A stretch of 64,000 nucleotides of DNA from NCBI GenBank assembly GCA_051745165.1, contig JBNJDU010000003.1, forward strand, positions 8,127 through 72,126, given 5' to 3'. Origin of the DNA: Patescibacteria group bacterium. Its GTDB lineage: Bacteria; Patescibacteriota; Minisyncoccia; Minisyncoccales; PWPS01. Positions 9,564 through 51,084 of the stretch are shown piece by piece (position 1 is the first letter of the stretch; every line of letters begins with the position of its first letter). Both the position numbers and the translations under genes were made by a program. Under the pieces are notes generated by a model that worked only from the letters and a program-made list of their open reading frames with translations, had not been told where the DNA came from and did not search any database.

Positions 9564-9590
9564 AACTCCCTTATCAAGGGAGTTTTTGTT
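9564..9590 (+). terminator. Intrinsic terminator-like hairpin (AACTCCC-ttatcaa-GGGAGTT + T run)
   Basis: 7-bp stem followed by TTTTT, directly after the M23 gene. Confidence 0.6.
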
Positions 9591-27104: not shown

Positions 27105-27127
27105 AGATTAAAATTAATAACCTAACT

Positions 27128-27156
27128 AAAACCCCGCTTTTTATAGTGGGGTTTTA
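27128..27156 (+). terminator. Intrinsic terminator after rny (CCCCGC-tttttata-GTGGGG + TTTT)
   Basis: Hairpin flanked by an A run and a T run. Confidence 0.6.
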
Positions 27157-27164
27157 AAATTAAT

Positions 27165-27896
27165 ATGTTTGATATGTCTAATAAATTTATGTGGATAGCT
27201 GTATTTGCAGTTTTATCAGCTCTTGTTAATGGTATAGGGATTTGGGCAATTTCTAAGAAAAAAGAGTGGGTAGAAAAAACTAAAAACTATTTTATGTGTT
27301 TTGCTGCTGGAATCTTGGTTACTACCCCATTAATACTTGCTCTACCTAATGCTTTAGAAAAGACTGAATGGGCTGGTTTTGCTGCTTTGGGAGGTTTTCT
27401 TTTTATGTTTTTCTCTAAAAAAATTATAAATTATTATGTTAAAGAGGATTCATTAGTCTTTGGAACGGTTACTGCTCAAGGGATTGGAATTCACTCTTTT
27501 GTTGATGGTGTAGTTTATGCGGTTACTTTTCAAGCATCAATTTTGGTGGGTGTTTTAGCTGCTACTGGAATGGTTATGCATGAGTTTTCAGAAGGAGTAA
27601 TTACTTATTCAGCCTTAATAAAGAGCAATGTGAAAGAAAAGAAGGCTTTCTGGTCTGCTTTTGCAATTGCCGGACTTACTACACCACTTGGAGCGTTTGT
27701 TGGGTATCCTATTATTAGCTTAGTTAATGAAACTGTTTTAGGAGGACTTTTAGGTTTTGTTGCCGGAGTATTATTATTTGTTTCTGCTTCACATTTACTA
27801 CCAGAAGCAGAGGCTGGTGAGAATGAACATTCAGTTGGTGCTTTTAGTGTAGGGGTGGCAATTGCTTTGTTTATATTTTTGAGTAAATTCCTATAA
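27165..27896 (+). CDS. ZIP-family (ZupT-like) divalent metal transporter
   Basis: Polytopic membrane protein with HSFVDGV and HEFSEGV motifs. Confidence 0.85.
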   Translation: MFDMSNKFMWIAVFAVLSALVNGIGIWAISKKKEWVEKTKNYFMCFAAGILVTTPLILALPNALEKTEWAGFAALGGFLFMFFSKKIINYYVKEDSLVFGTVTAQGIGIHSFVDGVVYAVTFQASILVGVLAATGMVMHEFSEGVITYSALIKSNVKEKKAFWSAFAIAGLTTPLGAFVGYPIISLVNETVLGGLLGFVAGVLLFVSASHLLPEAEAGENEHSVGAFSVGVAIALFIFLSKFL

Positions 27897-39460: not shown

Positions 39461-41008
39461 TTAATTATTGAGTGATTTAATCATGTAAGTGTCTTTTAGT
39501 TTGTAGCCGTTTTTCCTCCAATAGCCTCTGGCTCCGACTCCAGAAATAACACTTATTTTATTTGTGGGTGCTAATTTTTCGGCCTCTTTCACTAATTTTT
39601 TTCCTAAACCTTTATGTTGAGGAGATGTTGCTAGTATTTCTCCGTTTTTGATCATTGTTTGCTGTCCATAAGTATGAATTTCACGAATAATCGTGCTATT
39701 TTCCAGTACTTCGGGATAAGGATCTTTAGGGATTCTCATTCTTAACAGGCTGAACAATTTAGTTCTTTCTTTATTTTCAAAAGTTAAAACAATCTCTTTT
39801 CCTTCAGAGGCTTTATATTCTTTTTTAAAGAGGCGCAAATCTTCGTTTGGATCGTAATTGTCTTTTACTTCTCTACATCTAATACAATTACACCTCCACC
39901 CTTCTCGTTTAGCTTTTTTTGATAGTTTTTCTCTTAAATTTGAAGATCCTCCCCCAGCAACAACACTTTGGGCTGGTATATCTCTAATTACCCTTTGAAT
40001 CCTAACCCAGTAAGGAATAATTTCTTTTTTAATTTTACTTAAAAGCTTAATTAGCTCTTCCTCATTGTAAGGAGCGTAATCTCCACTTTTATAAAGATCA
40101 TAAAGAGGAGCTTCTTTTAAGACCATGCAGGGATATACTTTTAAAAAGTCAGGTTTGAATCTTTGATCTTGAAAAAGAATTTTGAACATTTCAAGATCCC
40201 TTTCAAAAGTTGACCCGGGAAGATCCGGCATTACTTGATAGCAAACCTTAAAGCCGGCGTCTTTTAATTTCTTAGTCGCCTCTACGGTTTCTTTTACGCC
40301 GTGTCCTCTTTTGTTTTTCTTTAAAACATCTTCATACACACTTTGAACTCCAATTTCAACCATGGTAATTCCTAATTTACGGAGATGTTTTATTTCTTCC
40401 TTATCGATGTAGTCTGGCCTGGTTTCAATTGATAAGGTGACCATTTTGTGATCCGCAGTTTCATTTTCCTTTTGAGCTTGTTTTAGAGTATCTGCTTCTT
40501 TTTCATTTAAAGCTTCGAAGCATGGTTTAACAAACTCTTCTCTGTATTCTTTACTATAATAAGACCAAGTTTCTCCAACTATTCTAACTTCAACCTTATC
40601 AGTTGGATGACCGGTTTTAGTCAAAGATGTTATTCTATTTTGAACTTGTTTTTTAGGATCAAAGTGATTTAGTTTTGCTCGCATTACAGCTGGTTCATTA
40701 TCTAAGTAACTCTTTGGAGCACCTTCTTGAGCTGGGCAATAGATGCATTCCCCCGGGCAAGCGTGAGATTTAGTTAGTACAGAAACGTTCACCACGCCGG
40801 ATAAAGAGCGAACCGGCCTAAGTCTTAAAGCGGCTTCCAGCCTTTTATCTTTAACATTCATATTTCGGTAAACCTCAATTAAATCCACATTTGGTGGACA
40901 ATTTGTTTTATATTTTTTACAAACATCCCGCTTAGTTTGATCAACTATTTCTCGAGATATTTTATCTTTTTTTAGTAGTTCTTCTACTATTTCTTTTTCT
41001 AAAGACAT
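39461..41008 (-). CDS. elp3: Elp3-type radical SAM + GNAT enzyme (tRNA U34 cm5 modification family)
   Basis: Radical SAM cluster motif CPGECIYCP, the central Elp3-like TIM region, and a C-terminal GNAT (HKGLGKKLVKEAEKLA). 515 aa. Confidence 0.88.
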   Translation of the reverse strand: MSLEKEIVEELLKKDKISREIVDQTKRDVCKKYKTNCPPNVDLIEVYRNMNVKDKRLEAALRLRPVRSLSGVVNVSVLTKSHACPGECIYCPAQEGAPKSYLDNEPAVMRAKLNHFDPKKQVQNRITSLTKTGHPTDKVEVRIVGETWSYYSKEYREEFVKPCFEALNEKEADTLKQAQKENETADHKMVTLSIETRPDYIDKEEIKHLRKLGITMVEIGVQSVYEDVLKKNKRGHGVKETVEATKKLKDAGFKVCYQVMPDLPGSTFERDLEMFKILFQDQRFKPDFLKVYPCMVLKEAPLYDLYKSGDYAPYNEEELIKLLSKIKKEIIPYWVRIQRVIRDIPAQSVVAGGGSSNLREKLSKKAKREGWRCNCIRCREVKDNYDPNEDLRLFKKEYKASEGKEIVLTFENKERTKLFSLLRMRIPKDPYPEVLENSTIIREIHTYGQQTMIKNGEILATSPQHKGLGKKLVKEAEKLAPTNKISVISGVGARGYWRKNGYKLKDTYMIKSLNN

Positions 41009-41028
41009 ATATGTTAATTAGGTGGTTA

Positions 41029-41056
41029 ATTATAGCTGTACTCAGTCATAATTCAA
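41029..41056 (-). promoter_or_regulatory. sigma70-like promoter for elp3 (TTGAAT-16-TATAAT)
   Basis: -35 at 41056-41051 and -10 at 41034-41029 on the minus strand. Confidence 0.5.
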
Positions 41057-41061
41057 ATTAT

Positions 41062-41091
41062 TTGATTTTTAATCCGCTAGCGGGTTATACT
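41062..41091 (+). promoter_or_regulatory. sigma70-like promoter for the methyltransferase gene (TTGATT-18-TATACT) with palindrome CCGCTAGCGG in the spacer
   Basis: TTGATT at 41062-41067, TATACT at 41086-41091, palindrome at 41074-41083. Confidence 0.5.
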
Positions 41092-41100
41092 ACTAGTGAT

Positions 41101-41790
41101 ATGAATTTTGATAAATACATACTAGATAAAACAAGAGAAGATTACAATTTAATAGGTGATAAATTTTCCAATACTAGGCATAAACCTTGGCAAGAGTTTG
41201 AGTTTTTATTTGAAGACATTCCTCAAAAAGCTAAAGTTTTAGACCTTGGCTGCGGGAATGGGAGATTTTTTGACGCTTTAAAAGAGAAGCAAGTTGACTA
41301 TATTGGATTAGATAAATCAGAAAAATTAATTTTAAAAGCTAAGGATAAATTTCCCGAAGCTAATTTTGAAATTGGAGACGGGTTGAATATGCCCTTTGCC
41401 GACGATTATTTTGATTACGTTTTTTCTATAGCAGTTCTTCATCATATGCCCTCAGAGGAGACCAGGGTGCAATTTTTAAAAGAAGTTAAGCGAGTGTTAA
41501 AAAAGAATGGTGAAGTCAGGTTGTCAGTTTGGAATTTAATTAATGCTAAAAAAAGCATTTATTTTAAAAACTTTAAAGAAAAAGCAGAAGGCAAAATTGG
41601 TTTTAGAGATGCTTTTATACCTTGGAAAAATAATAAAGGAAAGGTTGTTACAGAAAGATACTACCACTTTTTTAAGGAAAATGAACTTAAAAAAATAGCT
41701 AAAAAAGCTGGACTCAAAGTAGAGAAAGTTTTTACTAAAGGAGAAGGTGTAAAATCAAATATATTTCTTTTCGCAACTAATGAGAGTTAA
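41101..41790 (+). CDS. Class I SAM-dependent methyltransferase resembling Trm9/ALKBH8-type tRNA (mcm5U34) methyltransferases
   Basis: FSNTRHKPW, VLDLGCGNGRF, FSIAVLHHMPSEETRVQFLKEVKRVLKKNGEVRLSVWN parallel the Trm9/ALKBH8 MTase motifs as I recall them. Start placed at ATG 41101, downstream of the promoter. Confidence 0.7.
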   Translation: MNFDKYILDKTREDYNLIGDKFSNTRHKPWQEFEFLFEDIPQKAKVLDLGCGNGRFFDALKEKQVDYIGLDKSEKLILKAKDKFPEANFEIGDGLNMPFADDYFDYVFSIAVLHHMPSEETRVQFLKEVKRVLKKNGEVRLSVWNLINAKKSIYFKNFKEKAEGKIGFRDAFIPWKNNKGKVVTERYYHFFKENELKKIAKKAGLKVEKVFTKGEGVKSNIFLFATNES

Positions 41791-42112
41791 GTATATTAGT
41801 CCAACAAAAATTGAAATTGCTGATCAGGAGTACAAAGAAACAATTTTAGTTTCTTCAGAAGGTGTTATCTTTTCTTGGCAAGAAAAAAAGATGATAGAAA
41901 AAGAAGATTTGATTAGATTCATAAAAGAAGCACCGGATTTACTTGTTATTGGGACTAATAAAAATGTTAAAAGTGTCTCTGTAGATGGGCAAAAATTTTT
42001 AAAAGAAAAAGGAATTATTTTAGTAGTTGATAAACTCTTCGAAGCAGTTAACGTTTTTAACAAAGCTACAAAAAGCGACAAAAAAATATTAGCCCTCTTT
42101 CCTCTTGGTTAG
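41780..42112 (+). CDS. Mth938-domain (DUF498-like) protein, 110 aa
   Basis: LLVIGTNKNVK...FLKEKGIILVV...EAVNVFN...KKILALFPL pattern. Overlaps the methyltransferase gene by 11 nt. Confidence 0.6.
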   Translation: MRVKYISPTKIEIADQEYKETILVSSEGVIFSWQEKKMIEKEDLIRFIKEAPDLLVIGTNKNVKSVSVDGQKFLKEKGIILVVDKLFEAVNVFNKATKSDKKILALFPLG

Positions 42113-42121
42113 TTAAAAGAC

Positions 42122-42152
42122 TTGACAAATTTTAAGAAAAGGTTAGTATTAT
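42122..42152 (+). promoter_or_regulatory. sigma70-like promoter of the greA leader (TTGACA-16-TAGTAT, or 19-nt spacer to TATTAT)
   Basis: TTGACA at 42122-42127 and TAGTAT/TATTAT at 42144-42152, about 185 nt upstream of the greA ATG. Confidence 0.6.
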
Positions 42153-42194
42153 AGCACCGATGGATAATTGGCTCACCCGGTAAAAAAGAATCTC

Positions 42195-42225
42195 ATTTCT
42201 TGTTTTGAAGAAATAGTTTCTTTTT
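42195..42225 (+). promoter_or_regulatory. Terminator-like hairpin in the greA leader (ATTTCTT-gttttg-AAGAAAT + TTTCTTTTT)
   Basis: 7-bp A/T-rich stem followed by a T-rich run. Confidence 0.4.
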
Positions 42226-42283
42226 AACCTTTTAAATAATATATAAGCAATATACTTTTCCGGGGTTATCAAGATATAAGCCA

Positions 42284-42340
42284 ATGAAAAAAGAAATTTA
42301 TCGACCTCCCTGGATACAAGGGAGGTTTAATCTTATATGA
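42284..42340 (+). promoter_or_regulatory. 18-codon uORF (MKKEIYRPPWIQGRFNLI) overlapping the greA start in ATGA; contains hairpin CCTCCC-N9-GGGAGG (42305-42325) that pairs the greA SD
   Basis: Read directly. The uORF stop TGA at 42338-42340 overlaps the greA ATG at 42337-42339. Confidence 0.35.
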
Positions 42341-42792
42341 CTAAAACTTACCATCTAACCGAAGAAGGATTAGAAAAAATTGAAAAGGAACTAGAAGAAT
42401 TACGTCAAAAGAGAAAAAATAAGACTAAAAATGACGTTCCTAATGTTTTGGAATCGGAAGACTTAAATCCAGAGTATTTGGATTTTAGAGAAGAAATAGA
42501 ATTTCTTGAAAAAAGAATTGCAAAACTTGAAACGGTAGTAAAAAACACAAAAATAATTGAACCCCCTGAAGATCAAAGCATTGTTCAATTGGGGGCGAAG
42601 GTTATTATTGAAGCAGACAACCAAGAAGATGAGTTTAAATTGGTTGGTTCTTTAGAAGCTGATCCGGCAAAAGGAAAGATTTCTGGCGAATCTTTAGTTG
42701 GTAAGAAGTTATTAGGCAAAAAAGAAGGAGATAAGGTAAAGGTCTCTTCAAAGGTTGAAACTATATATAAAATAAAGAAAATTGAATACTAA
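42337..42792 (+). CDS. greA: Transcription elongation factor GreA
   Basis: N-terminal coiled coil (LTEEGLEKIEKELEELRQ) and a C-terminal FKBP-like domain (GAKVIIEADNQEDEFKLVGSLEADPAKGKISGESLVGKKLLGKKEGDKV). Confidence 0.92.
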   Translation: MTKTYHLTEEGLEKIEKELEELRQKRKNKTKNDVPNVLESEDLNPEYLDFREEIEFLEKRIAKLETVVKNTKIIEPPEDQSIVQLGAKVIIEADNQEDEFKLVGSLEADPAKGKISGESLVGKKLLGKKEGDKVKVSSKVETIYKIKKIEY

Positions 42793-42793
42793 A

Positions 42794-43426
42794 ATGAAAG
42801 AAATATTTAAATTTATTTCTAAAATAGGCAAATTAAAAGCTGCTGGTAGAAGAGGGTGGGAAATACATGGTGTAGAGAACCCAGAAACTACTGCTGCTCA
42901 TAGTTTTCAGTTAGCGATGCTTGTTTGGTCTATCGGGAGAGAAAAAAAAGATTTTGATTTGAATAGAGCTATTAAAATGGCTTTAATCCATGATATTTGT
43001 GAAGTTTATTCTCCAGATTTAACTTCTTATGATGCGGTTGCAATTGATGAAGATGAAGAATTTACCAAAGAAGATGTTAAGGATCTAGAACCAATTAAAG
43101 GAAGACCAACTCACAAGCAGAGAGAAAAGATGGAAAAAGTTAAAGAGGAGTTAGAGCATGAAGCTATTGAAAAATTACTTAAAGATCTTCCTGAAGACAT
43201 GAAAGAAGAAATAGCTGGTTTATGGAAGGAGTACGAAAAAAGAGTTACTGATGAAAGTAGGTTTGTTAAGCAAGCTGATAAAATAACTAACCTACTGCAA
43301 GGAATAGAGTATTGGAAGCAAGGAATTGATGATATTGAGTATAAATTATGGGTAAGAAGGGCAAAAGAAACTATCGATGATCCTTATTTAACAGAGCTTT
43401 TAATTGAAATTGAAGAATCTCTTTAA
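42794..43426 (+). CDS. HD-domain phosphohydrolase (YfbR-like 5'-nucleotidase family)
   Basis: ENPETTAAHSFQLAML and LIHDICEVYSPD motifs. ATG 42794 preferred over TTG 42782, which lies inside greA. Confidence 0.78.
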   Translation: MKEIFKFISKIGKLKAAGRRGWEIHGVENPETTAAHSFQLAMLVWSIGREKKDFDLNRAIKMALIHDICEVYSPDLTSYDAVAIDEDEEFTKEDVKDLEPIKGRPTHKQREKMEKVKEELEHEAIEKLLKDLPEDMKEEIAGLWKEYEKRVTDESRFVKQADKITNLLQGIEYWKQGIDDIEYKLWVRRAKETIDDPYLTELLIEIEESL

Positions 43427-43453
43427 AACTGGAATAAAAACTCATAGCTGTTT

Positions 43454-43473
43454 AAGCCCCTTATCAGGGGTTT
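43454..43473 (+). terminator. Intrinsic terminator-like hairpin (AAGCCCC-ttatca-GGGGTTT)
   Basis: Stem-loop followed by a T-rich sequence after the HD gene. Confidence 0.5.
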
Positions 43474-43521
43474 ATTTATTTATTACTTTGCTTATAATTT
43501 AGGTGAAAAACATATAATGAT

Positions 43522-48641: not shown

Positions 48642-48692
48642 ATACTTTTAATCGAAAGGTTTGCTTTCGAATTTACTTAAACTTTTAAAGTG

Positions 48693-49046
48693 TGGAGATG
48701 GGGAGGTGTGACCCCCCGTCCGAAAATCCCTCCAAAATGAATCTACAAGCTTAGCCCGGTTTTTTCTCGACCGAAGCCTTGTACCGGACGAAGCTACTCC
48801 GGTCAAAGGTCTTTTAGCGTTCGCAAGGTCTGAGACCAACAAACCTTGTATAACCCGAATTTATGGTACTTTTACCACCCATCGGGTGTCAGTGGTAAAA
48901 GCAAGCTGTTACGCTACTGCTGGTGCAGGAGCGAAAGCTAAACTATCTTGTAAGTTGGCACTTACTAGATTTGGCAAGATTTACGAGATTTGCCAACTCG
49001 GCTTGCTACATTTTGAAGGTGATTCTCGTCTAGTCAACTCACCCCC
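48693..49046 (-). ncRNA. ssrA: tmRNA (SsrA)
   Basis: 5' GGGGGTGAGTTGACTAGACGAG pairs with 3' ...CCCCATCTCCA to give a tRNA-like acceptor with a G3-U pair. T-arm-like GGACGGGGGGTCACACCTCCCC. Internal tag frame GCC AAC TTA CAA GAT AGT TTA GCT TTC GCT CCT GCA CCA GCA GTA GCG TAA. Lies next to smpB. Confidence 0.85.
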
Positions 49047-51016: not shown

Positions 51017-51044
51017 AAAAGCACCAGTTTCCTGGTGCTTTTTT
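51017..51044 (+). terminator. Intrinsic terminator (GCACCAG-tttc-CTGGTGC + TTTTTT)
   Basis: Perfect 7-bp stem followed by a T run. Confidence 0.7.
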
Positions 51045-51084
51045 AATGGTTCAAATTTTGATTGGTTTATGTTATTATAAATAC

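Follow-up and report, generated by a model that had tools for sequence, protein, structure and literature searches.

A greA leader family of Patescibacteria with two competing, covarying helices, and its apparently decayed or derived copy in one genome

Results

The greA locus and the loci compared with it

The subject of this study is the leader of the transcription factor gene greA in the window, a 64,000-nucleotide (nt) stretch of AT-rich (33% G+C) Patescibacteria genome DNA. Positions 42122-42336 hold the greA promoter and a leader of ~180 nt, which is a member of a greA leader family common to many Patescibacteria. The regulated gene (42337-42792, forward strand) encodes a protein of 151 amino acids with the Pfam domains GreA_GreB_N and GreA_GreB; its product is 100% identical to a GreA protein deposited at NCBI under 'Patescibacteria group bacterium', and the position of its start codon is conserved among 32 homologues. 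The promoter is of the sigma-70 type (42122-42152, forward strand), with a -35 hexamer TTGACA at 42122-42127 and a -10 region TAGTATTAT at 42144-42152, and sits just 3' of the stop (42112) of the upstream DUF498 gene. It scores 10/12 in a promoter scan, and TTGACAA and TA.TATTAT are invariant or nearly so across 10 close relatives; the near-consensus promoter that a first-pass annotation of the window had placed upstream of greA is thus present, and its hexamers are kept. The gene order Elp3-like radical SAM, methyltransferase, DUF498, greA, HD hydrolase, PolX is common to the closest relatives, in which the gap before greA measures 180-215 nt. The Elp3-like radical-SAM/acetyltransferase gene of the window (39461-41008, reverse strand) is divergent from the methyltransferase and DUF498 genes (41011-42112, forward strand), and this arrangement is kept in most of the closest relatives with enough flank (L113 is an exception).

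The window was compared with ~90 related greA loci (referred to by L numbers), which comprised 80 metagenome loci and 14 loci that encode 7 of the closest GreA proteins. The protein database contained many homologues, at 50-81% identity; the closest set consists of 13 syntenic loci with GreA proteins that are 71-81% identical to that of the window, and ~75 further loci are more distant. A scan of a genome collection with GreA returned relatives at no more than 41% identity, all from other phyla, which were unusable for leader comparison and whose greA loci gave no match to model R1.

Elements of the leader in the window

In the alignments of the gap in close relatives (A2 and A6), the conserved boxes are GCCCGGTA, an AT-rich hairpin with a T run (AAAGGAA...TTCCTTTTTnTTTTT), TTCCGGGAGnGTTGA, ATCAACCTCCC and GGGAGG. 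The whole leader of the window folds better than its shuffles (z = -3.3, 0/200), and model R1 matches it at 42251-42339 with 34.9 bits. The elements described below all lie on the forward strand. Segment A (CCCGG, 42176-42180) is a possible partner of the 5' part of segment B (CCGGG). Across the family, a C-run of this kind is found within the leader open reading frame (ORF), ~55-80 nt 5' of B, and is a candidate 'segment 1'; 7 of the 10 close relatives keep the nucleotide sequence of the box GCCCGGTA, though they read it in differing frames. Next comes the AT-rich hairpin T1 (42183-42225), whose 3' arm is the U run and whose energy is -11.7 kcal/mol, or -15.8 kcal/mol when it is extended to 42179-42229. 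The AT-rich hairpin and T-rich run that the first-pass annotation had seen in the leader are therefore confirmed, and homologues of T1 (AAAGGAA...TTCCTTTTT) are predicted in most members of the window's clade, where they lie inside the leader ORF. Read by eye, the AAGAA/TTCTT of the window against the AGGAA/TTCCT of the relatives appears to be a compensatory G-C to A-U change; T1 is retained in the window, even strengthened. T1 is a candidate pause or early-termination hairpin.

Segment B of the window (CCGGGG, 42260-42265) is a degenerate copy of the relatives' CGGGAGnGTTGA and the alternative partner of strand C. The C:D hairpin (42303-42327) joins GACCTCCCT (42303-42311) to AGGGAGGTT (42319-42327) through the loop ggataca in 9 base pairs (bp) with an energy of -15.6 kcal/mol; it is followed by the U-rich tail TAATCTTAT and sits 9 nt before the greA AUG. 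Rfam has no counterpart of the leader: at gathering score nothing was found in the leaders of 20 related loci or of the whole window, and a scan of 41000-43500 with E-values up to 10 returned in the leader just CRISPR-repeat and plastid 3'UTR models, far below the gathering score. Elsewhere in the window, Rfam identified a full-length tmRNA (48690-49046, reverse strand, 121 bits), and ARAGORN run on the whole window gave four tRNAs and no tmRNA.

Two helices share strand C and covary

Apart from one bulge, the CGGGAGnGTTGA of the relatives is reverse-complementary to TCAACCTCCC, and as a result of this complementarity the C-rich arm has two possible partners. The two helices, B:C and C:D (2:3 and 3:4, respectively), share strand C and are mutually exclusive, and both covary. 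B, C and D change jointly across lineages, reading GGGAG/CCTCCC/GGGAGG, TGAGGGGA/TCCCCTCA/GGGGA, GGAGGT/ACCTCC/GGAGGT or GGGGGT/ACCCCC/GGGGGT. To quantify these changes we used 66 distinct leaders, in which C:D was taken as the G/C hairpin nearest greA and B as the best upstream complement of the C arm. In the MAFFT alignment (A3), 85% of the C:D cells are paired and 49 of them carry double changes, as compared to 21.9 ± 6.4 after shuffling (0/500 shuffles), while for B:C 84% of the cells are paired and the double changes number 65 versus 23 ± 6.8 (0/500 shuffles). The model behind the model-fitted alignment (A4) contained C:D only, so that its B:C count is less biased toward B:C; here 84% of the B:C cells are paired, with 45 double changes versus 18.5 ± 4.1 shuffled, and 89% of the C:D cells are paired, with 33 versus 10.2 ± 2.5 (0/500 shuffles for each). 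Compensatory changes occur in 8/8 pairs of B:C in both alignments, and both helices score best at slide 0. When B is free, the fold of lowest energy has C paired to B in 51/66 leaders; the window is among the 15 in which C:D wins.

The element is associated with greA. Model R1 was searched against 457 kilobases (kb), comprising the window and loci L001-L099, and all of its matches with E < 0.3 lie directly upstream of greA; within the 457 kb it found nothing in Saccharibacteria, Curtissbacteria, Chloroflexi or other loci. At some loci in Patescibacteria, greA is preceded by a promoter alone, without such a leader (e.g. L039, L065, L090). Other loci carry variants: in L061/L062 (~1935-1990) a TTGACA promoter sits between the hairpin and greA, and in L065/L066 a plain terminator and then a promoter take the place of the attenuator, which indicates that the leader architecture has been remodelled repeatedly.

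A leader ORF of the relatives ends at segment B

When the upstream 250 nt were inspected, the conserved TGA that precedes GGGG in the relatives turned out to be a stop codon. In 51/66 leaders the stop of an ATG ORF falls in the interval from -9 to +14 nt around the start of B. Of the 60 loci whose upstream sequence is long enough, 49 have an ORF of this kind with at least 25 codons, as compared to 3.2 in dinucleotide shuffles. By a wider definition, nearly all leaders contain an ORF of 28-45 codons that ends ~25-45 nt before the C arm. The typical end is ...TGA-GGGG, and in the window's clade it is ...CGG GAG xGT TGA/TAG, where the last codons are themselves B; two clades with differing B sequences thus each couple the stop to B. 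The clade of the window has its leader ATG 7-8 nt after the -10 region, making the transcript nearly leaderless (e.g. L106, L117, L026, L028, and L115, whose peptide is MNKKSCPVKVCYAKGMISFLLFNYRFFREC).

The peptide itself shows little sign of constraint. In nine close pairs, differences at the three codon positions number 25/44/36, and 27 codon changes are synonymous and 58 non-synonymous (i.e. 32% of the changed codons are synonymous). As there is no excess at the third position, we downgraded the idea of a conserved functional peptide; the codon counts suggest that what is maintained is an open frame of a certain length and with a certain end point, and not its product, as expected of a regulatory leader ORF. 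Pfam searches with six leader peptides gave no family at gathering score and two sub-threshold matches attributable to chance. In the leader-peptide set (A5) a loose F-G-K-(I/M)-I motif is seen 3-6 residues before the stop, with synonymous variation (TTT/TTC, GGA/GGT/GGC), and with a ribosome at the stop it would sit near the peptidyl-transferase centre, as in arrest peptides.

The copy in the window lacks the long leader ORF

The ATG that opens leader ORFs of 29-35 codons in L106, L115, L117, L119, L026 and L028 is present in the window, where it begins only a remnant, ATG GAT AAT TGG CTC ACC CGG TAA (MDNWLTR and a stop; 42160-42183, forward strand), 8-11 nt after the -10 region and hence nearly leaderless. 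Between this ATG and CCCGG there are 16 nt in the window and 17 nt in L115, L106 and L117, a difference that shifts the frame onto TAA after 7 codons. The stop of the remnant is 77 nt upstream of B. An ORF that starts with TTG (42168-42227) keeps the frame of the relatives (PVK...SF), yet it is also truncated and ends at TAA. The anti-terminator candidate has weakened as well, in that ~5-6 pairs of B:C are left (CCGGGG with CCCTGG) and the B..C fold reaches -12.5 kcal/mol, as compared to -15.6 kcal/mol for the 9-bp C:D hairpin, which is the thermodynamic default in the window. Judged from its sequence, the window copy appears to be a decayed or derived (i.e. rewired) version of the family design, and an assembly indel may be behind its truncated leader ORF.

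The upstream ORF that overlaps the greA start

The first-pass annotation had centred on a different reading frame, an 18-codon upstream ORF (uORF; 42284-42340, forward strand) that encodes MKKEIYRPPWIQGRFNLI. Its description was accurate: the uORF runs from the ATG at 42284 to a TGA at 42340 that overlaps the greA ATG (42337, ATGA), and the -15.6 kcal/mol hairpin lies within it, such that the uORF spans C:D exactly. The conservation check that it had proposed gave a divided answer, as the hairpin covaries across the 66 leaders, whereas the uORF and its Pro-Pro-Trp (PPW) motif occur in none of the 13 closest syntenic loci, nor in the ~75 more distant ones, when ATG ORFs ending near the greA start are sought in three frames. 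A 13-codon ORF near the greA start of L109 is unrelated to it. In dinucleotide shuffles of 42226-42302 with the hairpin kept, an ATG ORF spans the hairpin in 13.5% of cases and ends on an ATGA overlap in 6.7%. Both of its conspicuous features have simple origins: the Pro-Pro arises because the conserved C arm, CCT-CCC, is read in one of two frames open across the hairpin, and the ATGA overlap is found in relatives too because the second greA codon starts with A. The uORF is lineage-specific, probably fortuitous and most likely without conserved function. The eye-catching RPPW uORF is a cautionary case, as it is a by-product of a conserved C-rich hairpin arm.

The C:D hairpin, a proposed Shine-Dalgarno trap or terminator

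The same annotation had read the hairpin as a trap for the only Shine-Dalgarno (SD)-like sequence of greA. It is literally true that GGGAGG is the only such sequence there, but the statement is misleading, since SD motifs are not enriched in the window. With crude starts (the first ATG of each ORF), SD-like 4-mers of AGGAGGTG lie upstream of 5/47 window ORFs as compared to 7.6 expected at random, and GGAG or GAGG occurs within 25 nt upstream in 2/46 long window ORFs; the window yielded no 16S rRNA gene from which the anti-SD could be read. The last G of D is 8-29 nt from the greA ATG in 50/66 leaders and 33-146 nt away in the other 16/66, where the hairpin cannot act on the ribosome-binding site. 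In some relatives, namely L033 (1900-2000), L035, L073, L096, L038 and L094, 50-140 nt are inserted between C:D and the greA ATG. A long-range inverted repeat, CCCTCCCATCTTTCG...CGAAAGATGGGAGGG, flanks the insert of L033, with the 3' arm 8 nt before the ATG, and this insert could be either another structured element or a small mobile insertion. Sequestration of an SD sequence is therefore doubtful, on account of both the missing enrichment and the distances, and it is an unsafe inference wherever SD motifs are not enriched before genes.

The surroundings of the hairpin are terminator-like. In 54/66 leaders at least 5 T are present in the 9 nt after D, and the homologous U-rich tail lies at 42328-42336 in the window and after GGGGAUUUUU in the relatives. 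The presumed terminators of the window are G/C hairpins with U-rich tails that lie 23-27 nt after stops (9564-9584, 25437, 27127-27156, 43453-43474 and 51017-51042), and C:D resembles them in style, yet it stands 191 nt 3' of the upstream gene and behind its own promoter. In some cases the terminator hairpin of the preceding gene abuts the next start, as at 27127-27156 before the ATG at 27165 and at 51017-51042 before the ATG at 51046. We considered C:D as the terminator of the upstream gene and rejected it on position, as it lies at +191 nt instead of the usual +23 to +27 nt and 3' of a conserved promoter. C:D would thus be primarily a terminator of the leader; in copies that place it right against the AUG, that of the window among them, it would block the initiation region as well.

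Discussion

We consider it probable that these leaders form a family of ribosome-dependent greA attenuators of the trp type, of which the copy in the window is a decayed or derived member. The family layout would run from a TTGACA promoter to a leader ORF of 28-45 codons, a G-rich B at the leader stop, an AT-rich spacer of ~20-45 nt, a C-rich C and a G-rich D that leads into a U-rich tail and usually sits 8-15 nt ahead of the greA AUG. When C pairs with D, the resulting short G/C hairpin and U tract would act as a terminator and occlude the start region, whereas pairing of C with B would produce an anti-terminator. A ribosome located on the leader stop would cover B, allowing C:D to form and turning greA off; if B is free as C emerges, B:C would form and RNA polymerase would read through. 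The first-pass annotation is thereby partly supported: what it observed is real, its idea of a regulatory greA leader is supported, the mechanism that headed it is unsupported, and the features it overlooked, namely the leader ORF and segment B, are the more interesting ones.

A number of observations weigh against this attenuator reading. The covariation counts ignore kinship, as no correction for phylogeny is built into them. The termination efficiency of C:D in the window is uncertain, because its tail (TTTAATCTT) has 6/9 T and is interrupted and because a simple terminator scan did not call the hairpin. Complementarity between A and B is only weakly above shuffles across the family (mean z 0.47), so that A, a possible region-1 analogue on sequence grounds, makes a weak region-1-like partner. 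No run of a single codon occurs in ~55 leader peptides, and the F-G-K motif near the C-terminus may point to a role for the peptide itself. The window and L109-L114 keep B, C, D and T1 without a canonical long leader ORF (in the L109-L114 group the leader ATG is absent, independently of the window), from which it follows that translation may be dispensable, at least in this clade. Lastly, termination, translation of the leader ORF and the part of the ribosome as switch are steps that we infer from the sequences.

A rival reading is an RNA-only attenuator, in which B, C, D and T1 respond to RNA polymerase kinetics, to GreA or to a factor acting in trans, as proposed for GraL of E. coli, and the leader ORF is incidental. 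In its favour are the window and the L109-L114 group, where T1 and the segments B, C and D persist despite the lack of a canonical long ORF; it also draws on the nucleotide-level conservation of GCCCGGTA across differing frames and on the near-neutral evolution of the peptide, as well as on the finding that autoregulation by GreA in E. coli needs the leader in cis and catalytically active GreA (PMC6829880). It struggles with the ORFs of at least 25 codons that end at B in 49/60 loci versus 3.2 expected, which are hard to obtain without selection for translation, and with the tying of the stop to B in two clades with different B. We regard it as possible but rather unlikely.

A more speculative elaboration retains the ribosome and adds a clock. 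The leader would gauge how far RNA polymerase has moved relative to the first ribosome and thereby provide direct GreA feedback, the measured variable being the transit of the polymerase from B to D relative to the dwell of the ribosome at the stop. With little GreA, a slow or backtracked polymerase would let the ribosome get off the leader stop before C emerges, B:C would form and greA would be transcribed; with enough GreA, a fast polymerase would find B still covered as D emerges, and C:D would form and terminate transcription. The window copy would then be rewired, its new uORF across C:D replacing the lost leader ORF and anti-terminator. We offer this elaboration tentatively, as one that has a modest chance of being correct.

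The mechanism put forward in the first-pass annotation deserves consideration in this context, as it might, in this lineage, have taken the place of the leader ORF and anti-terminator that decayed. It holds that the RPPW uORF is translated, that an EF-P-dependent stall occurs at Pro-Pro-Trp, that translation opens the hairpin sequestering the SD sequence and that reinitiation at AUGA couples the uORF to greA. The uORF does exist and spans C:D exactly, an opener would be useful where C:D is the default and B is weak, and the missing SD sequence of the uORF is a weak objection in a genome without SD use, in which an AUG in an A-rich unstructured stretch could initiate. Neither the stalling motif nor the coupling fits the comparative data, as the uORF and PPW are absent from the 13 closest and all other loci and are within the reach of chance (7-13% of shuffles; p ~0.07-0.13), the Pro-Pro is a by-product of the C arm, the ATGA overlap is common to relatives, and sequestration is not meaningful where SD motifs are not enriched. 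We judge this mechanism improbable.

Very little credit can be given to the view that the small ORF encodes a functional, partly hydrophobic small protein co-transcribed with greA, with C:D as a partial intercistronic terminator or stabiliser. The peptides are loosely alike, having a Lys-rich N-terminus, a hydrophobic C-terminal half and the F-G-K motif, and some resemble a transmembrane segment with a basic tail (e.g. L071). The codon-position and synonymous-change counts and the Pfam searches speak against a protein under selection, the covariation of B:C and the coupling of the stop to B would be left unexplained, and in the window and L109-L114 the RNA elements persist even though the ORF is gone. 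That C:D merely terminates the upstream gene, or is a structural hairpin that is constitutive and does not switch, has in its favour that hairpins of the same style follow other window genes and in some cases abut the next start (27127-27156, 51017-51042). It is nevertheless highly improbable, since those hairpins lie 23-27 nt after a stop and not 191 nt after it and 3' of a conserved promoter, and since C:D co-occurs with greA across loci and covaries with a competing helix.

Leader-peptide attenuation is a classic mode of regulation. The trp-type reading of the greA leaders shares with trpL, hisL, pheL and thrL a short leader ORF, mutually exclusive 2:3 and 3:4 helices, a 3:4 helix that is a G/C hairpin with a U tract, and a stop that lets the ribosome cover segment 2. 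The greA leaders differ from them in that there is no run of regulatory codons, the regulated gene encodes a transcription factor and not a biosynthetic operon, the partner of segment 1 is weak, and the window has no long ORF. The speculative timing elaboration also resembles pyrBI, in which the relative speed of polymerase and ribosome decides on the terminator. In pyrBI, however, the signal is UTP and the leader ORF runs through the terminator, which is disrupted by the ribosome, whereas the ORF of the greA leaders ends before the anti-terminator strand.

The comparison with GraL of E. coli that the first-pass annotation had drawn is an apt one. There, the greA leader terminator stops two-thirds of transcripts (PMC2836576), GreA represses its own expression via the leader in cis, in vivo only and through an accessory factor (PMC6829880), and catalytically active GreA raises termination at the leader terminator, again in vivo only (PMC6829880; also PMC2836576). 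A survey reaching from Proteobacteria to Firmicutes puts greA/rnk in 7th place among the gene families predicted to have 5' attenuators (PMC2965389). Both systems concern the same gene, behind a strong promoter and a leader with a terminator-type hairpin, and GreA feedback is plausible in both. GraL is 40-60 nt long with an 11-bp stem near the promoter, and no leader ORF has been described for it (PMC2836576, PMC6829880). The Patescibacteria leader, in contrast, measures ~150-320 nt from ORF start to greA, and has a conserved leader ORF and a covarying anti-terminator. We found no sequence or Rfam similarity that would indicate homology to enterobacterial or Firmicute greA leaders.

The greA-leader and rnk-leader attenuators of Proteobacteria, Bacilli and Clostridia (Naville & Gautheret 2010, PMC2965389) belong to the same general class of 5' terminator plus anti-terminator; they come from other phyla and have other sequences, and the passages of that paper on greA consulted here do not mention a leader ORF with its stop at the anti-terminator strand. 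Among the loci we collected, the Anaerolineae greA loci L005, L007, L009 and L012-L014 carry a conserved GGAGTGGTTTTTATTTATT motif ~45-70 nt upstream of the ATG, which is the 3' half of a hairpin followed by a T run, and this Chloroflexi motif agrees with reports that leader terminators of greA are widespread in other phyla. Our literature search returned no description of a greA uORF, a greA leader peptide, this element or such leader peptides in the Candidate Phyla Radiation (CPR). Attenuators of greA are thus already known, the design with a leader ORF is new, and the cis-regulatory RNA family is undescribed as far as the literature and Rfam show.

Backtracked RNA polymerase is rescued by GreA, the level of which has to be held within tight limits. 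An anti-terminator strand that starts at the leader stop would bring the ribosome into the greA circuit by a simple and mutable design, in uncultured organisms that have very small genomes and few known regulators. If the timing elaboration is true, the leader would form a direct feedback loop in which a transcript-cleavage factor reports on transcription-translation coupling, and the accessory factor that makes GreA autoregulation in E. coli an in-vivo-only effect (PMC6829880) could be translation.

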